A stretch of DNA of 56,787 nucleotides, filler included, from Theionarchaea archaeon (GTDB lineage Archaea; Methanobacteriota_B; Thermococci; Methanofastidiosales; SZ-28-30): assembly GCA_018992565.1 (NCBI GenBank). It is 3 parts of 3 records of this genome, joined end to end, with 100 filler letters (N's around TTAATTAATTAA, not from the genome) between each part and the next. Parts side by side here need not be neighbours in the genome. Positions count along the whole stretch, not along the records: positions 38,602 to 56,787 come from JACVGW010000056.1; 2 more parts are not named here. The stretch is one strand, 5' to 3'. Under the pieces are notes generated by a model. The model had not been told where the DNA came from. It did not search any database and saw only the letters and a list, made by a program, of their open reading frames with translations. Positions 11,510 through 55,378 of this stretch are shown piece after piece. Every line of letters begins with the position of its first letter. Position 1 is the stretch's first letter. A program made the translations under genes and the position numbers.

Positions 11510-12499
11510 GTGATAACTATGGATGAAAAACCTCTACTGGAAGTGAAAAATCTGAGCGTAAACTTCTATATAAGACACGGAGTCGTGAATGCAGTAACTG
11601 ATGCGAGCTTTAAAATCCGGAAAAACGAGATACTGGGTCTTGTTGGTGAATCCGGATGCGGAAAGTCAGTCACTGCCTTATCTATTCTGCGTTTGCTTCT
11701 GGAGCCTCCTGCAAAGATAATGGGAGGCAGAATCCTCTACAAGGGAGAAGATCTACTAGAGAAAACTGAAAAGGAGATCAGAGAAATTAGAGGCAAAGAA
11801 ATTTCAATGATCTTTCAAAATCCCCTGTCATCTCTGAATCCGGTATTGACAATAGGATTCCAGGTTTCTGAACCTATCATTCTGCATCAAAATCTAAAAA
11901 ACGATGAAGAAGTGAAAAGAAGGACTGTGGAGATACTGAGGCAAATGGGTATTCCTGAAGCCGAGAAGAGATTGAAAGAGTATCCCCATGCATTCAGTGG
12001 AGGCATGAGGCAGAGAACAATGATAGCAATGGCGCTTTCCTGCAACCCTTCTCTTCTCATAGCGGATGAGCCAACAACATCACTGGACGTGACAATTCAA
12101 TTACAGATACTGAAATTGATGAGGAACTTGAGGAGAGATGTTGGCAGTTCAATATTGCTCATAACCCACGATTTTGGGGTTGCAGCTCAGCTCTGTGATA
12201 CGATCGCAGTAATGTATGCTGGTGAGACTGTAGAATATGGAAGTGCTGTTGATGTCTTGAAGGACCCAAAACATCCTTATACGAAATGCTTATTGCGTTC
12301 CATACCTCGAATAGATGTGGATATAGAAAGACTTGAGCCAATCAAAGGATCTGTGCCAAATGCAATGAATCTTCCTGATGGATGTCGATTCCATCCACGA
12401 TGTCCCTACATGATCGAAGACACATGCGAGAAAATAAAGCCTGAAGCCAGACAACTCACCGAAGGCAGACTAGTACGATGTCATTTATATGGAAGGTGA
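11510..12499 (+). CDS. dppD: Peptide ABC transporter ATP-binding protein
   Basis: Walker A GESGCGKS, signature FSGGMRQR, Walker B IADEPT, C-terminal Cys-rich oligo_HPY domain (HPYT, CRFHPRC). Confidence 0.94.
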   Translation: MITMDEKPLLEVKNLSVNFYIRHGVVNAVTDASFKIRKNEILGLVGESGCGKSVTALSILRLLLEPPAKIMGGRILYKGEDLLEKTEKEIREIRGKEISMIFQNPLSSLNPVLTIGFQVSEPIILHQNLKNDEEVKRRTVEILRQMGIPEAEKRLKEYPHAFSGGMRQRTMIAMALSCNPSLLIADEPTTSLDVTIQLQILKLMRNLRRDVGSSILLITHDFGVAAQLCDTIAVMYAGETVEYGSAVDVLKDPKHPYTKCLLRSIPRIDVDIERLEPIKGSVPNAMNLPDGCRFHPRCPYMIEDTCEKIKPEARQLTEGRLVRCHLYGR

Positions 12500-13481
12500 T
12501 CACAATATGGACTTGATTGAAATGCGAGATGTCAAGAAACATTTTCCCATATACAGTGGAATATTGCCCAAGGTAGTGGGGCACATAAAAGCTGTGGACG
12601 GAATTTCCTTGAGTATTGAACAAAATGAAGTCCTCGGCCTCATAGGCGAATCTGGGTGTGGAAAGACCACGTTGGGCAAAGTCGCCCTGAGGTTGTTGGA
12701 CCCTTCCGAGGGAAGTATCTTTTTTGAGGGAATTGATATTGCCAAAAAAAAGCATGATGATCTTCTCAGTTTCAAAAAAAAGACGCAGATCATATTTCAA
12801 GATGCTCATTCTTCGCTTGATCCCAGAAGCTCTATCGGCCTGAGCGTGGAAGAGCCACTGAGAACTCATAAGATGTTTCAAGATAGGGCTAAAAGAAAGG
12901 AACGAGTAGTTGAGCTTCTCGAAGAAGTCGGGCTCGAATCGGAGCATTATGATAGATATCCGCATGAATTTAGCGGAGGACAAAAACAGAGGATCTGCAT
13001 AGCAAGGGCTTTGGCTTTAGACCCTAAATTTGTGGTTGCAGATGAACCAGTCTCCTCTCTGGATGTTTCTGTGAGAGCTCAGATATTGAATCTCTTGAAA
13101 GATCTTCAGGCAAAGTACCATCTCTCAATATTGTACATAAGCCATGATATTAGTGGTGTAAAATATATCAGCAACAGGGTTGCAATTATGTATCTTGGAA
13201 AGATTGTTGAACTTGCAGATCAGAATGAGATTTTTAAGAACCCGTGCCATCCATACACGAAAGTCTTGTTGTCATCTGTCCCTGTTCCTGATCCTGAAAC
13301 GAGAGAAGAGGTCAAGTTGCTGAAAGGAGAAGTACCTAGTCCGATAGATCCTCCCAAAGCATGTCGATTCCATCCCAGATGTGATTGCTGCACGCCTGAG
13401 TGTAAGGAAAGAGAACCAGAATTGAGGAGGATCAAGAAAGGCCATTTCGTGAGATGTCTTTCTTTCAAGGATCTCGGGTAG
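12489..13481 (+). CDS. dppF: Peptide ABC transporter ATP-binding protein
   Basis: Motifs GESGCGKT, YPHEFSGGQKQR, ADEPVSSLDVS, HPYT, CRFHPRC. Confidence 0.94.
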   Translation: MEGDHNMDLIEMRDVKKHFPIYSGILPKVVGHIKAVDGISLSIEQNEVLGLIGESGCGKTTLGKVALRLLDPSEGSIFFEGIDIAKKKHDDLLSFKKKTQIIFQDAHSSLDPRSSIGLSVEEPLRTHKMFQDRAKRKERVVELLEEVGLESEHYDRYPHEFSGGQKQRICIARALALDPKFVVADEPVSSLDVSVRAQILNLLKDLQAKYHLSILYISHDISGVKYISNRVAIMYLGKIVELADQNEIFKNPCHPYTKVLLSSVPVPDPETREEVKLLKGEVPSPIDPPKACRFHPRCDCCTPECKEREPELRRIKKGHFVRCLSFKDLG

Positions 13482-32964: not shown

Positions 32965-33147
32965 CTCCGTTAACACATCATTCTCGGCGAGGCGGATGTC
33001 ATTTGTGATGCTGGTTCTCAGCATTCCTCGAAACTCTGGCTGCTCTGTCATATATTTGAAAGGAAGTGAAATGGCTGTTACAATGAAAGAATAGAAAATA
33101 ATTTGTCACAGAAGGACAACCTTTTTAAGCCAAACGGAAAAAGAGCC

Positions 33148-34542
33148 ATGATGATAACCATTCCCGATGAGATCATGAACTTCCTTGGTAAGAAGGGAGG
33201 ACAGACACTTCTCATAAAAGGGCGCGCAGGGAGTGGAAAGACCATTCTCTCACTGTCTCTTATAAAAGCCTGCAAGAACAACGGCATCTACCTGTCCACC
33301 CGAGTGAGACCTGACGATCTGTACAGGGATTGTCCGTGGATCAAAGACCAGTTGTCCAAGAGCAATATTGTAGATGCTACCAACCCTCTCAAAGAGAGAA
33401 TCGCTGTTCAGGAGAGAGATTTCTCAGAAGTGATTAAGTACGGCTCAAAGGAAGACTTCTTAGTGGCCCTCTATGAGCGAGTGGCCCAGCTGGCCCATCC
33501 CGTGGTGGTCATAGACTCCTGGGATGCTGTCATATCCAATTTACACACTTCTGAGGAAAGGATGGAAAAGGCCATCATTGAACTGTGCAAAGAAACCCAG
33601 ACCAACCTTATCTTAGTTGGAGAGCATCCTGAGGAAACCAAGCTGGACTATCTCATGGATGGTGTCATAGCACTGGAGCGCACCCGAATTGACGACAGAC
33701 GATTGCGGGTTATCCATCTGGTAAAATTGCGGGGTGTCGAGATCCACCAGCCTCAATACGTATTCACACTTGAAGACGGCATGTTCAGGAGTTTTGGACG
33801 GTTTGAACCCAGGCACATTGATAATCCCAAGATGTGGATTCCACTTCCCGACTCGGAGAAGGCTTTTTCTACAGGATGTGAGAATCTGGACGAAATTCTG
33901 AAAGGAGGATTCAAGAGGGGAAGCCTCAACTTGTTTGAGGAAGAACTTGATGTTTCCCGGACAGCTGAAGGATACTTGTGGAGGTGCTGCCTGTTCAATT
34001 TTCTGGCGCAGGACCGAGGTGTGGTTCTGTTGGCCGGAGAAGGAGTCAGTCCACAGAAACTGAAAGAGCTGTCAGTGCCCTATGTCGGAGAAGAGGTGTG
34101 GAACAGGCTAGTGCGCATTGGGGTATATGATATTGAAGAAACAGATGAATCCTACATAATTTCAGTGAAAGGAACATCGGAAGAACGGTATGCAACCTGG
34201 AAAGCTGTTCTGAGTGAACTCAAGACAAAGACCGGACAACCTATCCAGGACTACACAGCCCTGGATACGCTTGAATTCAGAAGCGGCGTGGAGAATACCA
34301 TAAAGAAAATGGGAAGAGGAGTTCGAGAGCTGAAGAATTCCGGAGATCTGCAAATCGCCTTGCTCAAACCTGGGCTCGAAGTGTCAAAACAGATCATCAA
34401 CCTGGCTGAGACATACTTCAGGGTCCGATCCATGTATGGCACGGCATTGTTGTATGGGGTCCATCCAGAAACAGGGTTCTACGTCATCGAAGTTGATTCA
34501 TCAAAAGGAGTTCCTCAGACTAAATTGGTACCTATTGTGTGA
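33148..34542 (+). CDS. KaiC/GvpD-like RecA-superfamily ATPase with two domains, the second degenerate
   Basis: Walker A GRAGSGKT, YLSTRV, Walker B VVVIDSWD, KLRG finger. The second domain starts STGCENLDEILKGG but lacks GKT. Confidence 0.85.
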   Translation: MMITIPDEIMNFLGKKGGQTLLIKGRAGSGKTILSLSLIKACKNNGIYLSTRVRPDDLYRDCPWIKDQLSKSNIVDATNPLKERIAVQERDFSEVIKYGSKEDFLVALYERVAQLAHPVVVIDSWDAVISNLHTSEERMEKAIIELCKETQTNLILVGEHPEETKLDYLMDGVIALERTRIDDRRLRVIHLVKLRGVEIHQPQYVFTLEDGMFRSFGRFEPRHIDNPKMWIPLPDSEKAFSTGCENLDEILKGGFKRGSLNLFEEELDVSRTAEGYLWRCCLFNFLAQDRGVVLLAGEGVSPQKLKELSVPYVGEEVWNRLVRIGVYDIEETDESYIISVKGTSEERYATWKAVLSELKTKTGQPIQDYTALDTLEFRSGVENTIKKMGRGVRELKNSGDLQIALLKPGLEVSKQIINLAETYFRVRSMYGTALLYGVHPETGFYVIEVDSSKGVPQTKLVPIV

Positions 34543-36908: not shown

Positions 36909-37145
36909 ATGGAAATGAGCGAAGAGGAGCTAATAGAACTGGACAGAGAAAACATCAGAATGGAAATGCGAGCTGCAGGGCTCCCCATTGACGAAGAAGA
37001 AGTGGAAAAGCTCAGGATAGCCATGCTCAAGGCGATGGTGCTTCGTACTATTGCTTCCGCTGCCCTGGTTCCCGAAACAGAAGATGAGGAAAAAGCCCAT
37101 CTACTGGAGGCAATCTATACCAATGCTCTGGCTTCTTTGCTCTAA
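36909..37145 (+). CDS. Small acidic helical hypothetical protein (78 aa)
   Basis: SD GCAGGTGA before ATG 36909; coherent amphipathic helical sequence. Confidence 0.65.
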   Translation: MEMSEEELIELDRENIRMEMRAAGLPIDEEEVEKLRIAMLKAMVLRTIASAALVPETEDEEKAHLLEAIYTNALASLL

Positions 37146-38386
37146 TTTCCAGGGTTCGTAAAAAAATCTTCTTCCAACCTTTGCCTTACTTTTTCATAAA
37201 AAGTCTCATACGGGAACTCAAGAGTCTGCCGTTCTTCATCATAATATTCCATCAGGATGCTTTGGCTCTTCCACCTGCCTGGAGGATTGCTGCGCATGGG
37301 GAACAACTTCCTGTCAACCAGTTCATCATACTGGTCAAGTTCAGTCATCAGTTTTCCTCCTAGGAAAGGGTCACCCACCGCATAGATTACACCATAGGGT
37401 TCCCCTCTTTCTACAGACTGAACCATACAGACTCTGGTGAAGATCCGTGTGTCTCTACCGAAGTTGAAGATGATGCGGTTAGTGGCTTCCACAGAATCAC
37501 ATCTCAGAAAAAGCATGAATCGAGAACATTTTGGGCCTGGAAATGGCCAGATGTAATACACCTTCTCCAGAATGTTCTTGTTCATCAGCTGCTGGTAGGC
37601 CTCCCTGAATTCCCTTAGCGAGAGATCCACATTCCTCAAATCTCTCAATTCAGCTTTCAACTCCTCTCTTTTTAGCTCCAGATGCTCTTTGCGAAGCAGT
37701 TCCTTTAATTCAGCCCTTCTTCTCTTCTTGAACTTCTTTTCAATGCGTACTATCCTCCTTAGATCGCATGCACCGTGACCATTCCATACGCGCATCAAGA
37801 GAATCTGAGCCACTTTGTTGAGAGCAATGCCAGAAAAGGACCCCCAATTTAGATCAGGAATGGGAACGTCCTCCAAGAGATGTCCAAAATCAGGTTCAGA
37901 AGAAGCTTCCGTACCATCAACTAAAAACGTAGGATTTATCAGTTTCCAATTTCCATCCAATTCAAAAAGATGATAGTATTTGATTATCTGGTTGTCTTTC
38001 AACAAATCAAGAATGCGTCTTAACCTATTGAGATCTGTATTCATGAATCCTACCATATATTTCCTGAAGATGCCTTCTTCAAGAGGAAAGAAGTAAGTCC
38101 AGCAGTTGATCTCCTGGAGCATGGAAATAATATATTCATAGGGACGATCAAACATGACAAAGGCAAATACTCGGGAGACCTTGTTTCTGAAGATTTTGCC
38201 GAAGTCGGGATACATATATGGACCTCCTAAATATTCTCTTCTTTCCAATTTTCTTTGTAACGTTGTCACATATTCCGTATATTTAAATCCGATAATACTG
38301 GAAAGCTCCTGATTCGTGAGATTTGGCTCCTGCCCCATCAATTGCAGCAACAGCTTCTCTCTTCTGGACAGATCCCTTCGCACCAT
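37142..38386 (-). CDS. wHTH regulator with apparent tandem Lrp/AsnC-like architecture (paralog of 40149-41225)
   Basis: N-terminal LSRREKLLLQLMGQEPNLTNQELS wHTH; shares GP(Y/F), I(N/D)CW..FP, NPxF, RIEK, PFP, NFGxDxR and FP(Y/F) with the paralog. Confidence 0.7.
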   Translation of the reverse strand: MVRRDLSRREKLLLQLMGQEPNLTNQELSSIIGFKYTEYVTTLQRKLERREYLGGPYMYPDFGKIFRNKVSRVFAFVMFDRPYEYIISMLQEINCWTYFFPLEEGIFRKYMVGFMNTDLNRLRRILDLLKDNQIIKYYHLFELDGNWKLINPTFLVDGTEASSEPDFGHLLEDVPIPDLNWGSFSGIALNKVAQILLMRVWNGHGACDLRRIVRIEKKFKKRRRAELKELLRKEHLELKREELKAELRDLRNVDLSLREFREAYQQLMNKNILEKVYYIWPFPGPKCSRFMLFLRCDSVEATNRIIFNFGRDTRIFTRVCMVQSVERGEPYGVIYAVGDPFLGGKLMTELDQYDELVDRKLFPMRSNPPGRWKSQSILMEYYDEERQTLEFPYETFYEKVRQRLEEDFFTNPGN

Positions 38387-40148: not shown

Positions 40149-41225
40149 GTGACTTTAAATGACACTGAAAAGAAGCTTCTCACCCTGCTTGGAAAAGATT
40201 GCTCACTTTCCAGGTCAAGACTGCAGCACTACCTGCAGTACAGAAGGATGAACACCGTGAGCAGCAAGATAGCCCACCTGAGAAAGGCAGGGTACATGAG
40301 AGGACCCTTCTACCATATTAACCTGAATGCAGTGGGGAAAAATCGCGTTTACAACATACTGGCTGAAATCAGGTTCGATCCCAGAGAGTACAGTTCTGCC
40401 TTTGAACTGGTCACTGTCATTGACTGCTGGGAATGGATTTTTCCTACCATGCAGGGAGATACTCTCTTTATTGTTTTCAGGTCCAACTACTATGCGTACC
40501 TCACACGGCTCCTTTCCCTCATCAAACAGGCGGGACTCATAACGTATGAGGTGCATTCTTCCCAGAATCGATGGTTTGTCCAGAATCCTGATTTCTTTGG
40601 GGAGATAATCCCGCAGGTCTCCAGTGGGTTCAAGGATGTGACTATTGACCTGGCGTACCCGGGACCGCACTCTGATATTTCGTGGAGGTTCATTGACCTG
40701 CAGGTGATGCAGTACTTGCAGGTGAAAACGTGTACTATCAGTGAAATACAGCGGATAGAAAAAAGAGTCTATGGACGGTTCTGGAGGCGCAGCCAGATCA
40801 AGTACAGCATGGAGAAGATCTGTGGGGCTGGAATTGCAGAAAGAAAACACTATAATATCTCTCCATTCCCCTGGGTTGAGAGCCTGGGGTTCTTACTACT
40901 GGTGGAAGGTGATCCAGAGGACGTGGTCAGATTCGTGGTGAATTTTGGCCAGGACTGCAGGATGTACAAAGCATATACAGTGTGCAGGGACATGGGATTT
41001 ATCTGGTGTGTCACAAGTCCACAGGTAGGACCTGAATTGATGAATACACTTGGGAGTCTCTCTCCACGGATTAATATCCGATGTCTCCAGCTGAAATCTG
41101 TCCACGACCCCCTGAAAAGGTCATTCAATGACGAGCACTTTGACATTGAGACGCAGCGGTGGACATTTCCCTTTGCGAAGTATAAGGAGGAGATCCAGGC
41201 CCTCATTGAAAAAAAAGAAAAATGA
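40149..41225 (+). CDS. wHTH regulator with apparent tandem Lrp/AsnC-like architecture
   Basis: wHTH LNDTEKKLLTLLGKD...VSSKIAHLRKAGY; second unit IDLQVMQYL...; SD GGAGGG; homologous to 37142-38386. Confidence 0.7.
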   Translation: MTLNDTEKKLLTLLGKDCSLSRSRLQHYLQYRRMNTVSSKIAHLRKAGYMRGPFYHINLNAVGKNRVYNILAEIRFDPREYSSAFELVTVIDCWEWIFPTMQGDTLFIVFRSNYYAYLTRLLSLIKQAGLITYEVHSSQNRWFVQNPDFFGEIIPQVSSGFKDVTIDLAYPGPHSDISWRFIDLQVMQYLQVKTCTISEIQRIEKRVYGRFWRRSQIKYSMEKICGAGIAERKHYNISPFPWVESLGFLLLVEGDPEDVVRFVVNFGQDCRMYKAYTVCRDMGFIWCVTSPQVGPELMNTLGSLSPRINIRCLQLKSVHDPLKRSFNDEHFDIETQRWTFPFAKYKEEIQALIEKKEK

Positions 41226-41255
41226 AAAGAGAGTACGTTCTTTTTCATGCCTGAT

Positions 41256-41351
41256 CTAGCAGGGACTGCCAGGGTCATCTCCTGGTTTTCCCCCTGAGGG
41301 GGTCACTCCCCCGAGAACATAAGGCAATCCAAGTGCGCCCATAGTGTACAT
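41256..41351 (-). CDS. Unannotated 31-aa Gly/Pro-rich peptide MYTMGALGLPYVLGGVTPSGGKPGDDPGSPC
   Basis: Strong SD GAGGTGA 4 nt before ATG and TATA box TTTTATATAT about 30-40 nt upstream. Below the ORF-track size cutoff. Confidence 0.65.
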   Translation of the reverse strand: MYTMGALGLPYVLGGVTPSGGKPGDDPGSPC

Positions 41352-41533
41352 TTTCTCACCTCATATGTCAATTTGAATACATATATAAAATCAATTTTGA
41401 ATTTATCAAGAAATAGTTGTTTTATTGTAATTTGCTTCAATAGAAGTCCTGATTCTTAATAGTTGTCTCATTTCTTGAGATTCTACCACTAGAAATGTTG
41501 GTACAGAGGACCTGCTTCACCTTGCGAATACGA

Positions 41534-42919
41534 TCACTCTGTATTCTCAGGAGAATCGTCCAGTACCATGAGATCTTCCATCTTGAATGTGGAGAGCTCT
41601 CTGTATCTCTTCTCAATCTCCTGTGACGTCCCCGTCTGCAGTGCCCGTAGATACGCCCCTTCCAGGAAGTCTCCTTTTTTCTTTCTGTCTATCTGCCTGA
41701 TGTTGTGTTCCACTTTTTTCATATCTGCAGGTTCATGCATTTCCCTGTAGAGGGCCAGGCTTTCCTCCCACACCGTCCTGGCTCTGTCCAAATCTTCCTT
41801 TCGGGCATAGCAGAGCCCTTCATTGTAGAGGGTTGAGGCTCTCCGGGATATGTTGCTACCTGCCAGGGTGAGGGCCTCAGAGAACAAGGTCAATGCTTCA
41901 TCAACATCATCATTCATGTAGAGACAGGAACCCAGATTGTTCAGAATATCAGACAGCAGCAACGGATCCTGGAAGGTCTGGAGAATCCTCTGGCACCTCT
42001 TGTAGTACTGCTCAGCCACCGTGTATTTTTCCTTCTTGAATGATACATTTCCCAGTCCTTTTAATGCATATGCTCTTCCCCGCATGTCTTCACATTCTTC
42101 ACAGATTCCCTCCATGCAAACGTAGAGCTCTTCTGCCTTATCCAGGTTATTCTTCAGTTCGTAGATGATACCCTGGTTGTACAGCACCCAGATACGCTGG
42201 GATGTCTCAAGACCATCCGGGATGCTGTGCTCCATGGCATAGAAAAGCGAACCATCATCCTCTTTTTGCTGGTCAGCCACTCTCCTGAGCACTTCCTTGA
42301 GGCTATTGTCCCATTCCTCTGCTGTACGCAGTTTCCGAGTCGCATCAATTCGTGTCATATAAAAGATCTCCTCCCCCTTCTTTGACAGCCTATACTGGTT
42401 TTGGTCAATATGACTCCGTTTCTTGTACTGGATATACCCCTTCATTCTCAGGTGTTTTATGTTCCGGTAGATATTTGCCCTGGATGTCCCCTTTATGTCA
42501 GGTAACGCGGTACGGAAATATGCTTCAATGTCCCCTGTGGTGGCCCTTCGGCTCGTTCCCACCACGTGGATGATGTGAAACATCACTTCCCAGGGCTTTG
42601 CTTCAAGTTCGGCCATGGCACTGGTGAGGGTCTCTTTGATGTGATGTCGCGAGTCTTCTGAAACCTGCTGGAAGGGTAGTCGTTCCTCAAAAAGGTTCAA
42701 TCCCCTGGAAGTCAGTGTGTAAAAGACAGGAATATCTTTTTTTTCGATTCGTTCCAGATATTCACCAATAAGAAGTCGCTGCAGCACTGTCTGAATCCTC
42801 TCGCCTCCCACGGTCTTCACCTGGTCTTTCAGAATTTTCCTCCCATGACGCCGTGCGAAGTCCAGTATATCAACCATGAGTTCAACATCTCGTTCCTCAT
42901 GGCTGCCGGGTGGAGTCAT
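41534..42919 (-). CDS. Double winged-HTH + TPR putative transcriptional regulator
   Basis: Two wHTH wings (YTLTSRG; SRANIYRNIKHLRMKGYI...YRLSKKG), then about 4-5 TPRs (LYNQGIIY, ALKGLGNV, ILNNLGSC, TLYNEGLCY). Confidence 0.82.
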   Translation of the reverse strand: MTPPGSHEERDVELMVDILDFARRHGRKILKDQVKTVGGERIQTVLQRLLIGEYLERIEKKDIPVFYTLTSRGLNLFEERLPFQQVSEDSRHHIKETLTSAMAELEAKPWEVMFHIIHVVGTSRRATTGDIEAYFRTALPDIKGTSRANIYRNIKHLRMKGYIQYKKRSHIDQNQYRLSKKGEEIFYMTRIDATRKLRTAEEWDNSLKEVLRRVADQQKEDDGSLFYAMEHSIPDGLETSQRIWVLYNQGIIYELKNNLDKAEELYVCMEGICEECEDMRGRAYALKGLGNVSFKKEKYTVAEQYYKRCQRILQTFQDPLLLSDILNNLGSCLYMNDDVDEALTLFSEALTLAGSNISRRASTLYNEGLCYARKEDLDRARTVWEESLALYREMHEPADMKKVEHNIRQIDRKKKGDFLEGAYLRALQTGTSQEIEKRYRELSTFKMEDLMVLDDSPENTE

Positions 42920-43027
42920 AGTCTTTTCTGGGAGTATTATTTAATATGGGTTTTGTCTCTTTGCAGAATTTGAGACTTTACTATAGAAAGAGCATTTATG
43001 TGATATATGACCACTGGTGCAGCTACT

Positions 43028-43450
43028 CTATGGATTTGATTTCTGGTTCATATTCTCCATGAAAAAGTCAATAATCTCCATAGATAACTCTGTTGAAACC
43101 TCTCTCTGTACCAGGAGGTCCAGCATCTCCTGTCTGAGGTTCTGGGTACCACGGTGTTCTTTCTGGTTCACCATGGTGAAGAGAAGGTAGAATGCATGAA
43201 TAACTCCCGGGGCCACGATGACATCGTGCTTACCCACCCGTGCAGGTGGTCCCTGTAATCCCCTGACTGTTGGTCCTCTCAGGTCCCGGGCTGCAGGCCT
43301 CTTCCCCCGGGCAACTGCACCACTCTGGAGGGCCTGTGTAAAGGTTTCCCACGCAATGTCAAAGGTTTGAGCTTCATCAGGATAGTATCTTTTCATGAAC
43401 TCACACGCATACTGCTTGACATGATCCATGATGCAGGGTTCTGTGTTCAT
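43028..43450 (-). CDS. Small hypothetical protein (140 aa): two helical blocks separated by an Arg/Gly/Pro-rich linker
   Basis: SD GGAGG before ATG 43450; linker ARGKRPAARDLRGPTVRGLQGPPAR. Confidence 0.7.
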   Translation of the reverse strand: MNTEPCIMDHVKQYACEFMKRYYPDEAQTFDIAWETFTQALQSGAVARGKRPAARDLRGPTVRGLQGPPARVGKHDVIVAPGVIHAFYLLFTMVNQKEHRGTQNLRQEMLDLLVQREVSTELSMEIIDFFMENMNQKSNP

Positions 43451-43606
43451 GAGAGTCCTCCCGATACAGACAGTACTTGATGTACTAGATATCACCAATT
43501 CTTTATAAGGTTTTTTGACTGGTTCTGGAGGTTGACAAAACCTATAATAATGTGGGATTGAATAGTACTGCAGTGTCAGACGTGAGAAATAGAGCGGGAG
43601 GTATGT

Positions 43607-46155
43607 ATGATTATCCACCCAAGAATCCTCTACCTGCTTTCTGCACCCCTGGTAGCTCTGGACGGCTGCCCATTAGATGCACTTGACATGGAATCAGAGC
43701 GAGATGTCATTGTGCGGGAACTGGCTGCCTGCAAGAAAGAGGTCCTGGTTCGCATTGGTCATGCCACCACAGAGGAACTGGCCAGGAGCATTGCAGAAGA
43801 ATTCAACATTCTGTATGTGAGCAGCCATGGGCGTGAGGAATTCCTCTTATTTGAGGACGGAAAGGGGGGAAGCCATGCTGTGACAGGTGACTACCTCAAA
43901 AGACTCATCCAGATGGGGGGGCCTTTTGAACTTGCTGTGGTCACAGCCTGTTATTCTGAGAAAATAGGTGAAATGCTTGTGGAGGCTGGTATCCGGCACG
44001 TTGTTGCTATAACATGCGACACCCCCGTGCTGGACCATGCAGCTATCGTTTTTGTGGGCCAATTCTTTCGCAGCCTTCTTCAAGGAGATTCTGTAAGAAA
44101 AGCATTTGAAATGGCCAGCCTCCTGGTGGAAGGAAATCCTGAATTGAAAAAAATAAAACCCCAGCTGGAGTTTTTGGCCTCAAGAAGGGGAATGCCATTT
44201 GTACCTGAAGAGGACAAGTTTGTCCTCCTTCCTTCAGACAGTGCTGTCCATGAGAACGTACTGCTCTCTGCAGAAGTCCCGGAGGGGGATCTCGTGGTGG
44301 AGGAACCTACAGGAAGAACCTTCCTCCTCCCGGTGAGACCACACTCCTTCACAGGGAGATCTTTGGAGATGTATGATATTATCAATGAACTGGGCATGGG
44401 GCGGCTTGTCACCATCACGGGAGTGGGGGGGATTGGGAAGACCATGGTCGCCATAGAAGTGGCCCGCTGGTTCTGCACACGGGCTCAATTCCCGGATGGG
44501 GTCTTTTATGTGGACCTGCGGCAGACAGACACTGTGGAGGGTGTTATTGATGTACTTGGGAGTGCACTGGGAGTGCAGTCAGCTGAGCTGGAAGATGTGG
44601 TTGTACATCTGGGTGGACGTCACGTCCTGCTGGTACTGGACAATGCTGAAGACATACTCTGGCAGGATGAACGTTCCATGCAGCAGGTTGTGGACTACAT
44701 CCTCAGGTTCACATCACATACCACCCTGCTGGTTACAAGCCAGCGCCCCGTTGGGGGAAACCTGCATGAATCAGAACATATCTATCGTCTGTGTTCCTTA
44801 GAACAGGATGATGCTGCCCTCCTCTTCCTCTTAACTGCAAGAAGAAGGCTCTTCAGGGAAGAATGGGAATCAGGGACGTTCTTAACGTTGATGGAGCAGC
44901 TGGGAGGGCATCCACTGTCTATTGTGCTCTCAGCATGTCAGCTGGTGCCAGGCGCAGCCCTGGAAGACCTGATGAAGAGGATAGGTCGGTACAGAGCAAG
45001 AGCATTCAAAGTGAGAGACATAACAGAGAGAGATAGAGACCACGGAGAAAGCCTGGTGGCCTCTCTGTCCTCAGCGTATGACAGCCTCTCTGATGACGCA
45101 AAGACCCTCTTTGGTGTGCTTTCTCTTCTGCCTGCTGGAGCGCAGGAGGAGATGCTCACGTCTATATGGGGGGATATGGCCTGGGAGTACATCCGTGAGT
45201 TGAATGAAGCCTCACTGGTGGAAATGAGAAATCGGCGGGCCACCCTGCTGCCACCTGTCAGGCTCTTCGCCACCACTGTGACAGGTGACGAGATCAGAAC
45301 CCAGTATGGCCCCAGGATTCTGGAATTCTTGGGAACGTACGTGAAGACACTGTACAAACACCATACTGCAGGTGACGCACGGGAGTATCGGTCCTGTTTT
45401 TCTGTGGATGAACCAAATCTCCGTTCTGCCATTCATCTCCCCTGTGAACCTCCTCAAACAGAAAAGGAACGTTCAGCCATTGGATTGCTGTCACCTCGCC
45501 TCATGTACCTATATTTCTACCATGACAGGCTAAAGGAGGCCAGAGAAGTTGGCGAGAGAATGTTATCTATCCTCGAGGGACTGCATGATCACGTGGGTAG
45601 GGCAGATACATTGCTGGTCTTGGGACTGGTTTCGGTGGAGAGAGGTGACCTAGAAGAGGCCCGATTGCAGTATGAAACAGCTCTCTCAATCTATGAGGAG
45701 GTTAGAGATACTAAGTGGGAGGCAAACACGCTCTGGAAACTGGGCGGGCTCTTCATGCTGTCAGGTGATTTTGGAAAGGCTCAATCCACGTATGAAAGAG
45801 CTCTCAGGATGTATCATCAGATTGATGAGAACCTGGGGGAAGCAAATATCCTCCAGGACCTGGGTGACCTCCTCATGCTGTCAGGTGATTNNNNNNNNNN
45901 NNNNNNNNNNNNNNNNNNNNNNNNNNNNNNNNNNNNNNNNNNNNNNNNNNNNNNNNNNNNNNNNNNNNNNNNNNNNNNNNNNNNNNNNNNCACTATAGAG
46001 CAGTGCAGTGGCTCATCCTGTACGCAGTTCAGCTCAGAACTCAGAATCTTGAAGAAGGTGCCATGATGTGCCTGGAATATGCTGGAGAATTTGCAGCCAG
46101 AGCACGAAATCAGTCCCTTCAATCACAAGTTGAGCAGCACCTCGGGAAAACATAG
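43607..46155 (+). CDS. CHAT (caspase-like) protease - STAND/NB-ARC NTPase - TPR protein, interrupted by a scaffold gap
   Basis: CHAT dyad YVSSHG...LFED...VTACYS; FTGR; Walker A GVGGIGKT; Walker B LLVLDNAE; VTSQR; GHPL; 40-aa TPRs. After the gap an open frame HYRAVQW...EQHLGKT* (45991-46155) is the likely true C-terminus. Confidence 0.88.
45891..45990. other. 100-N scaffold gap within TPR repeats
   Basis: Run of N. Confidence 0.97.
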
Positions 46156-46276
46156 TACAGAATCCTCCGTACATATCCTTGTAGAATACTACGAGTTCAC
46201 TCTGCATTCTCGCTTTCGAACTGGAACGAATTTGAACGGGGAAGAAAATGAAGGAAAAAATTGCCTTTCTTTACTG

Positions 46277-47605
46277 TCATGAAGGCAGCCAGTTCTTGAT
46301 GCTGTTGGAAGCCTCATCTACCAACGTTGTAGAACACTGCAGCAATTCAGTAGCCTCTCCCAGGTACTGAGCAGCCAATGTGGCAGCCGAGTTGAGGTCT
46401 TGTCCGTTCGGTGGAGATACCTCCTTTTTGAGTGTTTCAGCTCTTTTTCTAAGATCAACTTTCATCCCGTGGTATATGTCTGCTCTTTCAATGAATTTCC
46501 TTCTAAATTCAACTGCACGTGAGCTATTCTTTCCAATCTCCTCATCATATGCCAGCAAGATATTGTAGGTAAGCCCGATCATGCCTCCTGGATGCTCTGG
46601 TTCCGTCGGCCACACCTCTTCGGTAACCGCCCTGTTTTCCAGGTTGCAGGCACTTATAACTACTGAGCAGCAGCTCTTTATAGTGTTCTCGTCATGAGAG
46701 CCTGCATCGCGTGCCTGTGTGGCGAAGCCATTGATATTGATTTCCGATCGTGAGGCCTCGCTTGGGACACCTGCTGAATCAGAGGCCATCTCCATGCAGC
46801 GGATGGTGATTTCTCCCATAGGCATTGGCCTCTTTTCATTGGGTGTAGTCCCGGGTCCGTGAAGACTGGTAAATCCTGACTCAGGAGAGCTCGGTTCCTC
46901 GTAGACACTTCTTGCCATCCCAAGAATGTTCTGCGCCAAATCCACAACAGAAACCACAAGACTGTCACTGTCTATTCCTATTTCAGAAACAGAGGCTACC
47001 ATTTCCTCTTTCACGTAGTCTCTCCCGGGACTCGCTATTGCTGCCTCTGTTCTCGGAATAATACTGAATAAAAGGTAGGAGACTGTCTGCATGGTATTTC
47101 TCAACCGTTTAAGGACTGCCTCTGCATCCAGCCTGATCTTCTTTTCTGCACCATCAATAAGCTGTCTATTGAACCTTCTAGTTTCTCTTTGAAATTCTTC
47201 TGTCACGTTCTCACCTCCTTTGCAGCGATACCAGAGTGATCCAACCCCCATCAACTTCAGTATGAAAATGATCACAGCTGCCAGGAGTAATCCCAAGAAA
47301 ACAGCAGATATATCCCAGACCACTGTCATACACGAGACGCTGAGAGCCTCTTCCTCAGCCCCACAGAACCCCTGCAATGCAGTATGAAGATCTGCCCGTA
47401 AAGCAGCACAGGAAAAAGCCATCACCAGCCCGTCATATGTAGCAGCTGCACTCCACCTGAGCACATCCGCCTTGGGACCTGAGAATCCAGTAACCCACAG
47501 GTTCAGCCTCTCATTCAGAACTATTTCTGTGAAAAAGACAGCGGAAATAAGACAAACTATGTCTGTGCCGCAGCACGTAACCTGCATAAATCCAGCACAT
47601 TCCAT
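46277..47605 (-). CDS. Hypothetical protein: hydrophobic N-terminal part plus helical C-terminal domain (possibly two fused genes)
   Basis: SD GGAGGT before ATG 47605; a second perfect SD GGAGGTGA precedes an in-frame GTG at 47206. Confidence 0.55.
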   Translation of the reverse strand: MECAGFMQVTCCGTDIVCLISAVFFTEIVLNERLNLWVTGFSGPKADVLRWSAAATYDGLVMAFSCAALRADLHTALQGFCGAEEEALSVSCMTVVWDISAVFLGLLLAAVIIFILKLMGVGSLWYRCKGGENVTEEFQRETRRFNRQLIDGAEKKIRLDAEAVLKRLRNTMQTVSYLLFSIIPRTEAAIASPGRDYVKEEMVASVSEIGIDSDSLVVSVVDLAQNILGMARSVYEEPSSPESGFTSLHGPGTTPNEKRPMPMGEITIRCMEMASDSAGVPSEASRSEININGFATQARDAGSHDENTIKSCCSVVISACNLENRAVTEEVWPTEPEHPGGMIGLTYNILLAYDEEIGKNSSRAVEFRRKFIERADIYHGMKVDLRKRAETLKKEVSPPNGQDLNSAATLAAQYLGEATELLQCSTTLVDEASNSIKNWLPS

Positions 47606-47895
47606 CCTGATACCTCCTGCTAATTGCCGCGCAATTCTCTTCATACTTCTACTGGTTATTGGAAATATTTCTATTTAAGCCTTTCTACTTTCTGAATATT
47701 CAATTACCGGACTATTGAATGAACTTTAACAGGGTTGATGTTCACACTGTGAAGAGAAATAGATAGCTCTTGCATGAGATGTTGGCAGCCTGGAGTAATC
47801 TCGAGAAAGAAAAGTGAAGGAAAGACTGAATTTCAGGTGCACAGGTGGACCATTTGTGAGAATGGCGACTTTTCGCGGAATGAAGCAGATTTCTC

Positions 47896-53455: not shown

Positions 53456-55378
53456 ATGTCATTTGACCGAATCTTACTGGTGAAACCCAGAGGAAAAAGT
53501 GGGTTAGGGTTCTCTGCTGATGTAATTCCCATAGGACTGGAGTATATTGCTTCATCCATAGAAAAAGAAGTTGAAAAAGTCTGGATAGTTGATATGGAGC
53601 TCGAAAAGCTTTCATTCGAGCAGATACTGGATCTTGTCCAGCCAGATTTGGTGGGCATAACAATGTCTGCAACAGATCACCATGAAGGCCTCTGTCTCGC
53701 TGGAACAGCCAGGAAAGCCGGCAGTACCACTGTGGTAGGCGGTTACCACCCTACTGCAATTCCAGACGAATTGCTCTCCCACTCACAGGTTGATATTATC
53801 GTCAGGGGGGAGGGTGAGTCTACCATGAAGGAGCTGGTTCGGACAGACTCTCTTGAGGATGTATCCGGTGTCTCCTACAAAAAGAATGGAAAGATCACAC
53901 ATAACCCTGACAGGCATGTCGTGGAGAATCTGGATTCTCTTCCGTTCCCCGCAAGGAACTACAGGAGGCACAAATACAGAGATCACCTGGACAATAGTGG
54001 CAGAGAATTTGACGTGATTTCAATGTCGCGTGGCTGCTGGGGGAGGTGCATTTTCTGTTGCGAACCTTATATGAGTAACAGCCACATGCGGTTCAGGTCG
54101 CCTGAAAACATCATGAAAGAACTGTCTGAAATCGTATCATTTCATCAGGGGAAGAAGCTGCGAATTCTTGTGACAGATCCTCATTTTATAGGCGACCCCG
54201 TGAGAATCAACCGGTTGTGCGATCTACTACAGGAACAGAGCCTGGATATCATGTTCTCTGTCATGACGCGTGTAGATGGCATCGTCAGGCATCCTGAACT
54301 TGTGAAGAAGATGTGTGATAGTGGTATTTTGAACTATGAAATGGGATTTGAAAGTGTGAGCCAGGAAGACCTGGACAATGTCAGGAAGGGGACAACGCTT
54401 GACATGCAAAGGGAGGCTGTAAGAATACTACGAGAACACGGGGCAAATGTATCTGGTACCTTTGTTATCGGGTTGCCAGGCCAGGGCACAGAGCTCATAA
54501 AGCAATTTCCTGTCTATGCCAAAGAAATCGGACTGATGAACTGTGCATTTGGCATAGCGACACCCTTTCCCGGGACAGGATTCTATCAGGAACTGGAAAC
54601 GAGTGGTCTCATCTTTGAACGTGATTGGACGAAATATGATGAAATGCATTCTGTGTTCAGGTCAACACCACTGACAGCGCGAGAGCTGGAGAGAATGCAG
54701 AGCTATTGTACAGCACGGTTCTGGACCCTCAACACATTCCTGGATAGAGCCAGCATCCTGAACAAGAGAGCTGACGAAAAGATGTCACTGGTGCAGTTCG
54801 TGCATGACGTAGTCTCAAAAGCAAAGTTTGCCAGAGATGTTGGCTACGACTTGAGAGCTCACGGAATGAAAGACCATATGGAAGTATTCTTGAATGCACT
54901 CACAGATGCTGAGCTGGAAGAAAATGAAAGGAATATGCGTATACACGACATTATAGAAATGTCCACATTTCTGAGGATTCTGGGACCACAGCTCATTCAG
55001 CTTTCTTTGATGTTCGATGGACAGGTGGTCAGCTATGTCGTGAGAACTACAGACCGGAGCGTGGAATATGTGAGAATAATCCGTGGAAAAGAAGACGGCT
55101 CATCTATAGGTATGAATTTTAACCTGGATGAGGTGACTACTAACTCCTTCAAGGTTAATTCACTGCTCAATCCAGCAAATTATGTCTCCACTTTCAAAAG
55201 GATAGAGGGTGAAAGGAAAGTCCTGAATGGATTCAGATTATGTCTTGCTCTGACATTGTGCCTCAGTCTTTCGCATGCAAGAGAAAAAATGCTGTCCTGG
55301 AATGATACCCTGAGAGAGAATGAGATTTTGGGTAAAATCCTCAATGGCAACATACCTGGTGGTGAACATGATGAATAG
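53456..55378 (+). CDS. Cobalamin-binding radical SAM enzyme with C-terminal extension
   Basis: B12-binding domain (PIGLEYIAS, PDLVGIT, GGYHPT, VRGEGE); SRGCWGRCIFC; RFRSPE; GFES; ATPFPGT. Confidence 0.9.
   Translation: MSFDRILLVKPRGKSGLGFSADVIPIGLEYIASSIEKEVEKVWIVDMELEKLSFEQILDLVQPDLVGITMSATDHHEGLCLAGTARKAGSTTVVGGYHPTAIPDELLSHSQVDIIVRGEGESTMKELVRTDSLEDVSGVSYKKNGKITHNPDRHVVENLDSLPFPARNYRRHKYRDHLDNSGREFDVISMSRGCWGRCIFCCEPYMSNSHMRFRSPENIMKELSEIVSFHQGKKLRILVTDPHFIGDPVRINRLCDLLQEQSLDIMFSVMTRVDGIVRHPELVKKMCDSGILNYEMGFESVSQEDLDNVRKGTTLDMQREAVRILREHGANVSGTFVIGLPGQGTELIKQFPVYAKEIGLMNCAFGIATPFPGTGFYQELETSGLIFERDWTKYDEMHSVFRSTPLTARELERMQSYCTARFWTLNTFLDRASILNKRADEKMSLVQFVHDVVSKAKFARDVGYDLRAHGMKDHMEVFLNALTDAELEENERNMRIHDIIEMSTFLRILGPQLIQLSLMFDGQVVSYVVRTTDRSVEYVRIIRGKEDGSSIGMNFNLDEVTTNSFKVNSLLNPANYVSTFKRIEGERKVLNGFRLCLALTLCLSLSHAREKMLSWNDTLRENEILGKILNGNIPGGEHDE

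Follow-up and report, generated by a model that had tools for sequence, protein, structure and literature searches.

The DNA analysed here is a 56,787-nucleotide stretch from a Theionarchaea archaeon (hereafter the window, along whose full length all coordinates given below are counted), and proteins identical or near-identical to those it encodes are labelled Theionarchaea. Six genes are found between positions 40149 and 47644 (Table 1). They encode a 358-aa protein with a probable helix-turn-helix (HTH) domain, a 31-aa peptide, a 461-aa regulator predicted to combine a winged HTH (wHTH) with TPR repeats, a 140-aa helical protein, a CHAT protease domain fused to a STAND NTPase and a TPR array (hereafter CHAT-STAND), and a 455-aa protein whose relatives appear to be membrane proteins. 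We tentatively propose, at a likelihood that we place somewhat below even, that these genes form a lineage-specific cassette that couples an NLR-like protease to a transcription factor and its partner protein, in analogy to the Csx29-Csx30-sigma arrangement.

The proposed cassette would have arisen when an older two-gene unit, consisting of the wHTH-TPR regulator and its 140-aa partner, was joined once to the genes for the CHAT/NB-ARC/TPR protease and the membrane protein. Perhaps the TPR array of the STAND protein binds a ligand, whereupon nucleotide exchange and oligomerisation would switch on the N-terminal CHAT protease. The activated protease might then cut an exposed conserved loop of the 140-aa protein, which is predicted to bind and control the regulator, and the state of the regulator would thereby be switched. 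The regulator in turn would alter transcription from the promoters of the cassette, which are those of its own gene, of the 31-aa peptide gene and perhaps the divergent pair.

An earlier, sequence-only reading of the window had proposed a cascade of four genes (CHAT-STAND, 140-aa protein, regulator and peptide) that would act in signalling or defence. The cassette is indeed found throughout the clade. However, the pair proves to be older than the protease and independent of it, a defence role gained no support, and the cascade itself is what we infer from the analogy.

The regulator and small-protein pair

There are 12 loci that carry a full-length relative of the regulator: the window, seven loci from metagenomes (L001-L007), one from genome G001 (L099) and three from genome G036 (L103, L104 and L105). 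These correspond to 11 distinct loci, as L002 and L003 hardly differ from each other. In 10 of the 11, an intact small-protein gene lies next to the regulator gene, and L105 retains the first 24 codons of the small-protein gene only. Regulator identity to the window is 48-83% in the 11 further loci (10 distinct), and the N-terminal 235 residues match 45 clusters at 54-100% identity, with all named sources being Theionarchaea or Methanofastidiosia.

Two gene orders are found. In type 1 (window, L001, L002/L003, L004, L005, L103 and L105), the small protein comes first and the regulator follows, with separate promoter-like elements. In type 2 (L006, L007, L099 and L104), the regulator comes first and the small protein has a short loop; the reading frames overlap by 17-23 bases in L006 and L007, and the genes are close together in L099 and L104. 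Genes that stay neighbours through a change of order and whose frames overlap usually encode proteins that work together. Thus, the regulator and the small protein probably do so, and the small protein may well bind the regulator. Judged by these comparisons, the older constant unit is the pair of wHTH-TPR regulator and 140-aa protein, which exists in two forms.

Two of these loci have additional features. At L006 (10502-12960), the small-protein gene is present in tandem as a further full copy and a fragment, and this second copy overlaps the start of a gene for a TPR-only protein (11728-12960, cut by the end of the stretch). The small protein may therefore also pair with a TPR protein lacking a DNA-binding part. 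At L004 (1872-3325), the small-protein and regulator genes are set apart by about 1 kb of extra DNA, on which a 138-aa open reading frame (ORF) without a known family is found; the gap between them in the window is 108 bp.

Linkage of the CHAT-STAND gene to the pair

The CHAT-STAND gene is located divergently upstream of the small-protein gene in five of the seven distinct type-1 loci, which are the window, L001 (where the frame is broken near residue 520), L004 and L005 (both cut by contig ends) and L103. The six-gene block is kept at 43-70% protein identity in five flanking contexts (window/L105, L001, L002-L004, L005 and L103). No window gene outside 40149-47644 has a relative in L001-L005, and the only type-1 loci that share flanks are window/L105 and L003/L004. 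One representative, L103, is a second and diverged copy (43-59% identity) of the whole block, located in the same genome (G036) as the degraded locus L105. Thus, the expectation that the four genes would be conserved as neighbours is borne out and can be extended to the genes at 40149-41225 and 46277-47644, with the qualifications that the association has a single origin and that the pair also occurs without CHAT-STAND.

Co-occurrence is also seen on a larger scale. A survey of 132 species genomes from the phylum detected the small protein in two, and these are also the two with the CHAT N-terminus. For six further CHAT clusters and regulator clusters, the longest contigs are equal in size (32498, 17407, 7731, 8211, 22040 and 55472), which suggests that the members of each such match may come from shared contigs; clusters with no equal in size are uninformative on this point.

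In the regulator tree, type 1 forms one clade (support 93/95) in which the paralogous copy L103 branches first. A CHAT tree was built with FastTree from the first 620 residues of 44 sequences, comprising 13 from loci and 31 of 69 closer protein clusters, with L012, L015, L017-L019 and L022 excluded. The five cassette CHATs and that of locus L008 fall within one 29-leaf clade (0.934), and all seven CHATs known to occur without the pair (L009, L010, L011, L013, L014, L016 and L020) fall outside it, although the placement of L014 is weak with 165 residues only.

The remaining two type-1 loci have lost the CHAT-STAND gene through deletions with differing ends. L002/L003 retain the first 128-144 CHAT-STAND codons, fused to a fragment of the convergent gene, whereas their sister L004, which differs by about 1% in the regulator, keeps CHAT. 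The small-protein dN/dS ratio (nonsynonymous to synonymous substitution rates) between L002 and L004 is 0.73, a value calculated from four differences only. L105 is the orthologous locus of the window, with PriL and the MFS transporter 85% and 93% identical and in the same order. The deletion there (G036:C23, 5345-6045) removed CHAT-STAND entirely, left only the first 24 codons of the small-protein gene and took the convergent gene's 3' part. L105 has intact genes for the regulator (83% identity) and the peptide (90%) and an intact 358-aa gene (85%), and the regulator shows a dN/dS of 0.11. Neither deletion allele was seen as a joint in the contigs of four public runs.

Several observations weigh against a functional coupling of protease and pair. 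First, the trees indicate that the association of CHAT-STAND with the pair arose once, and therefore its persistence may reflect inheritance rather than selection. Second, each gene has its own promoter-like element, and therefore the cassette is not one operon. Third, the two independent deletions took CHAT-STAND and spared the regulator, peptide and HTH genes. The loop motif of the small protein is likewise invariant where CHAT is absent, which therefore points to a CHAT-independent role for this motif. No CHAT-STAND gene is present within 2.6-10 kb on either side at any of the four type-2 loci. Moreover, genome G001 carries a CHAT-STAND gene of the clade and a type-2 pair on different contigs, where the CHAT contig begins 352 bp upstream of the gene.

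More distant homologues add to these points. A search of genome contigs with the single CHAT-STAND protein gave no loci, and a search with the CHAT-STAND alignment gave 79 (CHAT-STAND or NOD-TPR relatives). When all ORFs of these 79 were searched by hidden Markov model (HMM), neither the small protein nor the regulator turned up in any of the loci. At L014, a CHAT fragment of 165 residues that is 66% identical to that of the window is found behind genes for a 2-oxoacid:ferredoxin oxidoreductase and a redoxin, with no pair. An all-against-all comparison of the neighbours of CHAT-STAND homologues found no shared partner beyond close relatives. The sequence-only reading had named CHAT-STAND homologues in random contexts, lacking the small protein or regulator, as a finding that would refute it; this is the situation among the distant homologues (0 of 79), and not in the orthologous clade.

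One possibility is that the cassette comprises two unrelated modules that have been neighbours since a single ancestral juxtaposition and do not signal to each other. These would be a housekeeping-type regulator unit (the pair, the HTH protein and the peptide) and an NLR-like unit (CHAT-STAND and the membrane protein). We consider this explanation, the main rival, somewhat unlikely. All 4 type-2 loci have the pair without CHAT-STAND, and all 11 loci outside the clade that have upstream DNA (those of the 79 with a CHAT domain and 2.7 kb or more of such DNA) have a CHAT-STAND homologue without the pair. In addition, CHAT-STAND and the membrane protein were lost together in both deletions and are kept together in the window, L001, L008 and L103. 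The separate promoter of every gene and the single origin also fit this explanation. However, the six genes stay together in five contexts with differing surroundings, including the diverged second copy L103, the deletion at L105 reached across most of the small-protein gene as well, and the small-protein loop is longer exactly in the CHAT-linked form.

Architecture of the CHAT-STAND protein

The CHAT-STAND protein matches the Pfam CHAT profile (PF12770) over residues 29-172 with 33.5 bits (cut-off 24), a match that covers only profile positions 107-264 of 289. Matches to NB-ARC (29.5 bits, cut-off 23.5) and NACHT (28.5 bits, cut-off 26.7) place the NOD at residues 264-442, and TPR_12 is matched with 59.1 bits (cut-off 30.1). 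The CHAT dyad motifs are SSHG (H74, G75) and TACYS (A114, C115), and the Walker A and B motifs read GVGGIGKT and LLVLDNAED, respectively. In an alignment of 16 homologues with 31-99% identity, H74, G75, C115, G275/G277/K278/T279 and D345 are invariant. An HMM of the CHAT-STAND alignment matches plant CNL NB-ARC chains (E 8e-9) and the solved 'CHAT domain-containing protein' 8tl0_A (E 8e-12).

With a P-loop domain above threshold and both Walker motifs, the protein qualifies as a STAND NTPase of the NB-ARC/NACHT type (NLR-like). Its domains follow the tripartite order of N-terminal effector, central NOD and C-terminal repeat sensor. Likewise, the domain match and the conserved His-Cys dyad assign the N-terminal part to the CHAT branch of the caspase superfamily, for which protease activity is predicted. 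Thus, the intact His-Gly and Ala-Cys dyad fused to a STAND NTPase and TPR array, as recognised by the sequence-only reading, is upheld by matches above the Pfam cut-offs and by residues that are invariant in the homologues.

The TPR array of the window copy is interrupted by 100 N at 45891-45990. Because protein P0004 (955 aa) matches 757 of the 761 residues that precede the gap, the full length is taken to be 955 aa, with some 142 TPR residues hidden by the gap. P0004 also shows that the gene continues after the gap in a different frame for its final 54 residues, up to 46155, just as had been deduced from the nucleotides. One 5570-base contig of one public run spans 40616-45851 unbroken. The N run falls within near-identical 34-residue TPR units, and contigs of one public run have a joint at this run described as 'goes back 103'. 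The window overall contains 376 N in several runs that span 19756-52679.

The 140-aa protein and its loop

There are few relatives of the 140-aa protein. A word-based search gave three, a metagenome scan with their alignment gave seven loci, and a full HMM search found 13 representatives at E<=0.001 among 1.84 billion. The homologues are 37-99% identical, and dN/dS is 0.23-0.36 across well-diverged loci. No family in Pfam, NCBIfam, PADLOC or PHROGs matches the protein.

An AlphaFold2 model made from a 10-sequence alignment depicts a five-helix bundle with a confidence score (pLDDT) of 72.3. The model gave no convincing fold match, the best values being E 0.87 for Foldseek against the PDB, Z 7.2 for VIA and E 0.43 for BFVD. 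Two readings of the fold were considered and dropped. A Bcl-2-like fold was set aside because Bcl-2-family and CED-9 entries were reached only at E 3-6 (Foldseek PDB), which was taken as noise. Similarly, viral mimicry was set aside because the Z of 7.2 to archaeal filamentous-virus coat proteins in the wide VIA-align comparison is below the noise level of this tool for helical bundles.

The conserved residues of the protein include the helix PDEAPYFDIAWE and the DLKxPxVR loop, in which D56, L57, P60 and R63 are invariant among 10 sequences, giving the motif D-L-[KR]-x-P-x-[VI]-R. Among the 12 sources scanned, this motif is exclusive to proteins of the 140-aa family. Compared with type-2 proteins, those of type 1 have 14-15 additional residues in the loop and carry a second, degenerate copy of the motif. 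The protein had been described as containing an Arg-Gly linker. A disordered loop is indeed predicted at residues 46-76, but its Arg and Gly richness is not conserved, and the motif given above is what is conserved instead. The loop also varies in length in natural populations, since an in-frame 3-base deletion at 43245 is present in contigs from two of four public runs.

Under the proposed coupling, the protease would be expected to cut after R63 or in the second copy of the motif. The coupling can also be put in a more specific version. Perhaps the output of this archaeal NLR-like receptor is proteolysis of an anti-regulator instead of cell death, such that a cut in the loop of the 140-aa protein, which would represent a new fold family, frees or converts the wHTH/TPR factor. 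The response would include the Cys-containing 31-aa peptide. The cassette would then be a CRISPR-independent counterpart of Csx29-Csx30-sigma that arose by capture of a pre-existing pair. In this complete form, we regard the proposal as rather unlikely.

The regulator and the 31-aa peptide

One winged helix is weakly detected in the 461-aa protein, where HTH_34 is matched at E 2.1e-5 with 25.1 bits, below the cut-off of 27. A profile match to a MarR-family chain has an E of 0.2. In the AlphaFold2 model, the TPR half (residues 240-445) has pLDDT values of about 75-97, and residues 1-230 are below 50 over long stretches. The protein had been described as a double-wHTH-TPR regulator. Its TPR part and one weakly detected winged helix stand, whereas the poor N-terminal model neither confirms nor rejects a second winged helix.

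The 31-aa peptide gene is kept in six further loci (five distinct), and the peptide is present in all seven type-1 loci, with 44-90% identity across L001-L005, L103 and L105. Its dN/dS is 0.14-0.42 in six pairwise comparisons among four sequences. The C-terminal tail is conserved as P-C/S-G-G-x-P/E-G-D-D-x-x-T/S-P-C. Comparative evidence thus indicates that all three small genes, for the 140-aa, 461-aa and 31-aa products, are real. The peptide was not found in the type-2 loci L006 and L007, and a signal sequence is not evident on reading it.

PlcR, NprR and AimR are peptide-binding regulators of the RNPP type, and the HTH of RNPP proteins is of the XRE type. The presence of HTH and TPR on one protein, with a short peptide gene adjacent, resembles this arrangement. 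Perhaps the 31-aa peptide, which is encoded just downstream, is processed and then bound by the wHTH-TPR protein, with CHAT or the 140-aa protein participating in its processing or in antagonism. The peptide gene adjoining the regulator is separately promoted, conserved and under purifying selection, and the conserved C-terminal tail would also be consistent with such a role. However, the HTH is winged, the regulator has no match to Pfam RNPP_C at E<=0.01, and no export signal is evident in the peptide. Furthermore, a secreted propeptide whose gene is kept with its regulator is expected of RNPP systems, yet the peptide was not found in the sister form (L006 and L007), which has an otherwise intact regulator family. 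We therefore consider peptide sensing of the RNPP kind to be highly improbable.

The flanking cassette genes

The 358-aa protein has no match in Pfam, NCBIfam or PADLOC. Look-alikes by Atlas features (score 0.93) are archaeal clusters of about 350-400 aa, some members of which carry an HTH_24/AsnC-type HTH, and this is treated as a lead only. Identity is 55-85% in related blocks. An HMM of the family finds the protein in all type-1 loci and twice, in tandem, in L104, and not in L006, L007 or L099. A 414-aa paralogue of this gene (about 24% identity) is located in the window at 37142-38386 on the minus strand, 1.8 kb away and beyond the MFS gene.

The 455-aa gene is found downstream of CHAT-STAND in the window, L001, L008 and L103, which is wherever downstream DNA exists, and it is partly deleted along with CHAT-STAND in L002/L003 and L105. 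Its relatives have at least five hydrophobic segments and a conserved cytoplasmic C-terminal domain with the motif EHPGG-IGH-YNIL. The window copy lacks most of the hydrophobic segments of its relatives (L001 3055-4548, L008 3408-5132), and the L103 copy has no membrane segments as read. No Pfam, NCBIfam or PADLOC family was found for the protein, no usable Atlas feature match was obtained, and structural matches reached TM scores of at most 0.40.

An alternative is that CHAT targets this convergent membrane protein or itself, with an effect on the membrane or the death of the cell as the output, similar to protease-gasdermin pairs, while the pair sets only the level of the CHAT-STAND promoter. 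The membrane protein is the one neighbour that accompanies the CHAT-STAND of the clade wherever downstream DNA exists, it is truncated in both deletions, and the membrane segments and cytoplasmic domain of its relatives would suit such an output. The small-protein and CHAT promoters, moreover, are back to back. The condition of the window and L103 copies described above argues against this idea, as does the fact that neither a gasdermin-like nor any other known family or fold was found. A conserved loop resembling a cleavage site was not seen in the protein, and no search aimed at one was made. On this evidence, the membrane protein or CHAT itself is distinctly unlikely to be the target.

Gene coordinates and promoter-like elements

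The positions of the four ORFs named in the sequence-only reading agree with those in Table 1, and the head-to-head arrangement of the CHAT-STAND and 140-aa genes is confirmed with a spacer of 156 bp (about 155 bp had been given). The back-to-back elements that had been quoted for this spacer, each resembling a TFB recognition element (BRE) and TATA box, are also present. The corresponding spacer is about 340-480 bp in L001, L002/L004 and L005. For the regulator gene, the TATA-like core is kept in seven of seven aligned type-1 loci, and the upstream ATCTCAAAT element is kept in six of seven.

Related ATCTCAA(G/A)... elements precede the peptide and regulator promoters at positions that are conserved across loci. 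The operator motif ATCTCAARWWYTG is not enriched, with three matches in the window against 2.68 expected, such that it has no statistical support beyond its conserved position. A look for transcript data among 23 sequencing runs found no RNA run listed.

Table 1. Coordinates of the cassette genes, protein domains and candidate regulatory elements in the window
Feature	Position	Strand	Basis or remark
358-aa protein, probable N-terminal HTH, convergent on the peptide gene	40149..41225	+	member of the conserved block
31-aa peptide gene (MYTMGALGLPYVLGGVTPSGGKPGDDPGSPC)	41256..41351	-	conserved in related loci
Peptide-gene TATA TTTTATATAT (41381-41390) and ribosome-binding site GAGGTGA (41356-41362)	41356..41390	-	conserved in a 5-sequence spacer alignment
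Candidate operator ATCTCAAGAAATG, belonging to a TCTCA-N-TGAGA inverted repeat that lies upstream of the peptide promoter	41469..41481	-	conserved across loci
461-aa wHTH-TPR regulator	41534..42919	-	TPR families, weak HTH_34 match
Regulator promoter-like element: GTCTCAAATTCTG (42964-42976), BRE-like ACAAAAC (42950-42956), TATA-like CCATATTAAATAA (42937-42949)	42937..42976	-	
140-aa helical protein, constant partner of the regulator	43028..43450	-	start is the ATG at 43450
Predicted disordered loop of the 140-aa protein, residues 46-76, with motif DLRGPTVR (43262-43285) and a degenerate second copy	43223..43315	-	pLDDT <50
Divergent spacer with back-to-back BRE/TATA-like elements	43451..43606		alignment of related loci
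BRE/TATA-like element AAAAAACCTTATAAAG	43501-43516	-	conserved in 5/5 aligned related loci
BRE/TATA-like element AAAACCTATAATA	43537-43549	+	only the TATA-like core conserved in aligned related loci
CHAT/NB-ARC/TPR STAND protein	43607..46155	+	Pfam matches, motifs, homologues
CHAT domain, about residues 1-200	H74 at 43826-43828, C115 at 43949-43951	+	Pfam, motifs
NB-ARC/NACHT, about residues 264-442, then TPR from about 620 to the end	within 43607..46155	+	Pfam, HMM
455-aa protein convergent on CHAT-STAND	46277..47644	-	relatives with a multi-pass membrane N-terminus

Chromosomal neighbours and the question of defence

The chromosomal neighbours of the cassette are ordinary and include genes for PriL (the primase large subunit), a JAB protein, an MFS transporter and an amino-acid kinase. 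Elsewhere in the window, a KaiC/GvpD-like P-loop protein (GvpD_P-loop plus GvpD basic region 2) is encoded at 33103-34542 on the plus strand, with no gas-vesicle genes noted among its annotated neighbours. A B12-binding radical SAM gene is located at 53456-55378, 7 kb from the block, and a radical SAM/SPASM gene is found directly beyond the block at L103 (14081-15127, minus strand, genome G036).

The defence role that had been suggested from the sequence alone was not supported, as no PADLOC system and no defence or mobile genes were found in the flanks. With the PADLOC-DB 2.0 library, which dates from 2023, CHAT-STAND gave weak generic matches only (mad8 at E 1.2e-4 and TPR at E 1.5e-4) and the regulator matched only TPR (E 1.1e-10). 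There was no match for the peptide, the 140-aa protein or either flanking gene. Among 43 other large ORFs of the window, the search returned only ABC-ATPase and radical-SAM cross-matches and a weak match to a CARF model (E 1.3e-6) at 1339-1818, some 38 kb from the cassette. No integrase, transposase or defence family was found among 31 flank ORFs of L001, L003, L004, L005 and L103. Similarly, no cas model was matched by the window ORFs, and none appeared among the Pfam-annotated neighbours. The only hints of a role in biological conflict are the architecture of CHAT-STAND and the repeated loss of its gene.

Relation to known systems

The closest analogy is to the type III-E CRISPR 'Craspase'. 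There, the TPR-CHAT protease Csx29 cleaves Csx30 in a flexible loop, and Csx30 is a protein that binds CASP-sigma, a sigma factor, and acts as its inhibitor (PMC10028731). The likeness is that a TPR-containing CHAT protease is encoded beside a flexible-loop protein and a transcription factor. Compared with that description, the predicted switch in the cassette is a fused NB-ARC/NACHT NTPase rather than the RNA-guided Cas7-11, and the transcription factor is a winged-helix TPR protein rather than a sigma factor. No cas genes were matched by PADLOC in the 43 other large window ORFs. In addition, the 140-aa protein resembles nothing known in sequence or fold, and its cleavage and binding are predicted from the analogy.

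A second likeness is to the bacterial EACC caspase systems, which have an N-terminal caspase-superfamily domain followed by variable modules that include STAND NTPases and repeats (PMC7159879). These systems are defined by a constant EACC1 gene, which encodes a single transmembrane segment and lies 5' in the same direction, or by a fused EACC2 domain. For the EACC2 type, a neighbouring transcription factor and TPR protein were proposed as the output. Here, in contrast to the two-gene arrangement of EACC1 and caspase, the upstream gene is divergent and its product is modelled as a soluble-looking five-helix bundle. Furthermore, CHAT begins from residue 1, and TPR and HTH are found on one protein.

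The order of effector, NOD and repeat sensor, the intact Walker motifs and the predicted caspase-like protease effector are also shared with NLR-like STAND families. Unlike the defence families of this kind, CHAT-STAND has only weak PADLOC matches to P-loop and TPR models (E about 1e-4), and a defence neighbourhood was not found. In the descriptions of those families that were consulted, a constant link to a regulator pair does not feature.

Implications

Many STAND/NLR proteins with caspase-like heads have been predicted across prokaryotes, and the substrates and outputs of almost all of them are still to be determined. Our literature search found no studied archaeal STAND/NLR protein with a caspase-like head. 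The cassette offers candidates for both substrates and outputs, which are the 140-aa protein with its exposed conserved loop, the membrane protein, and the transcription factor with three mapped candidate promoters. Natural controls are provided by the protease-less sister form of the pair and by the two natural deletions.

If the link between protease and transcription does not hold, then the pair still constitutes a new and very narrowly distributed two-component regulatory unit. If the link does hold, the logic of type III-E CRISPR would also operate downstream of an NLR-like sensor in archaea.

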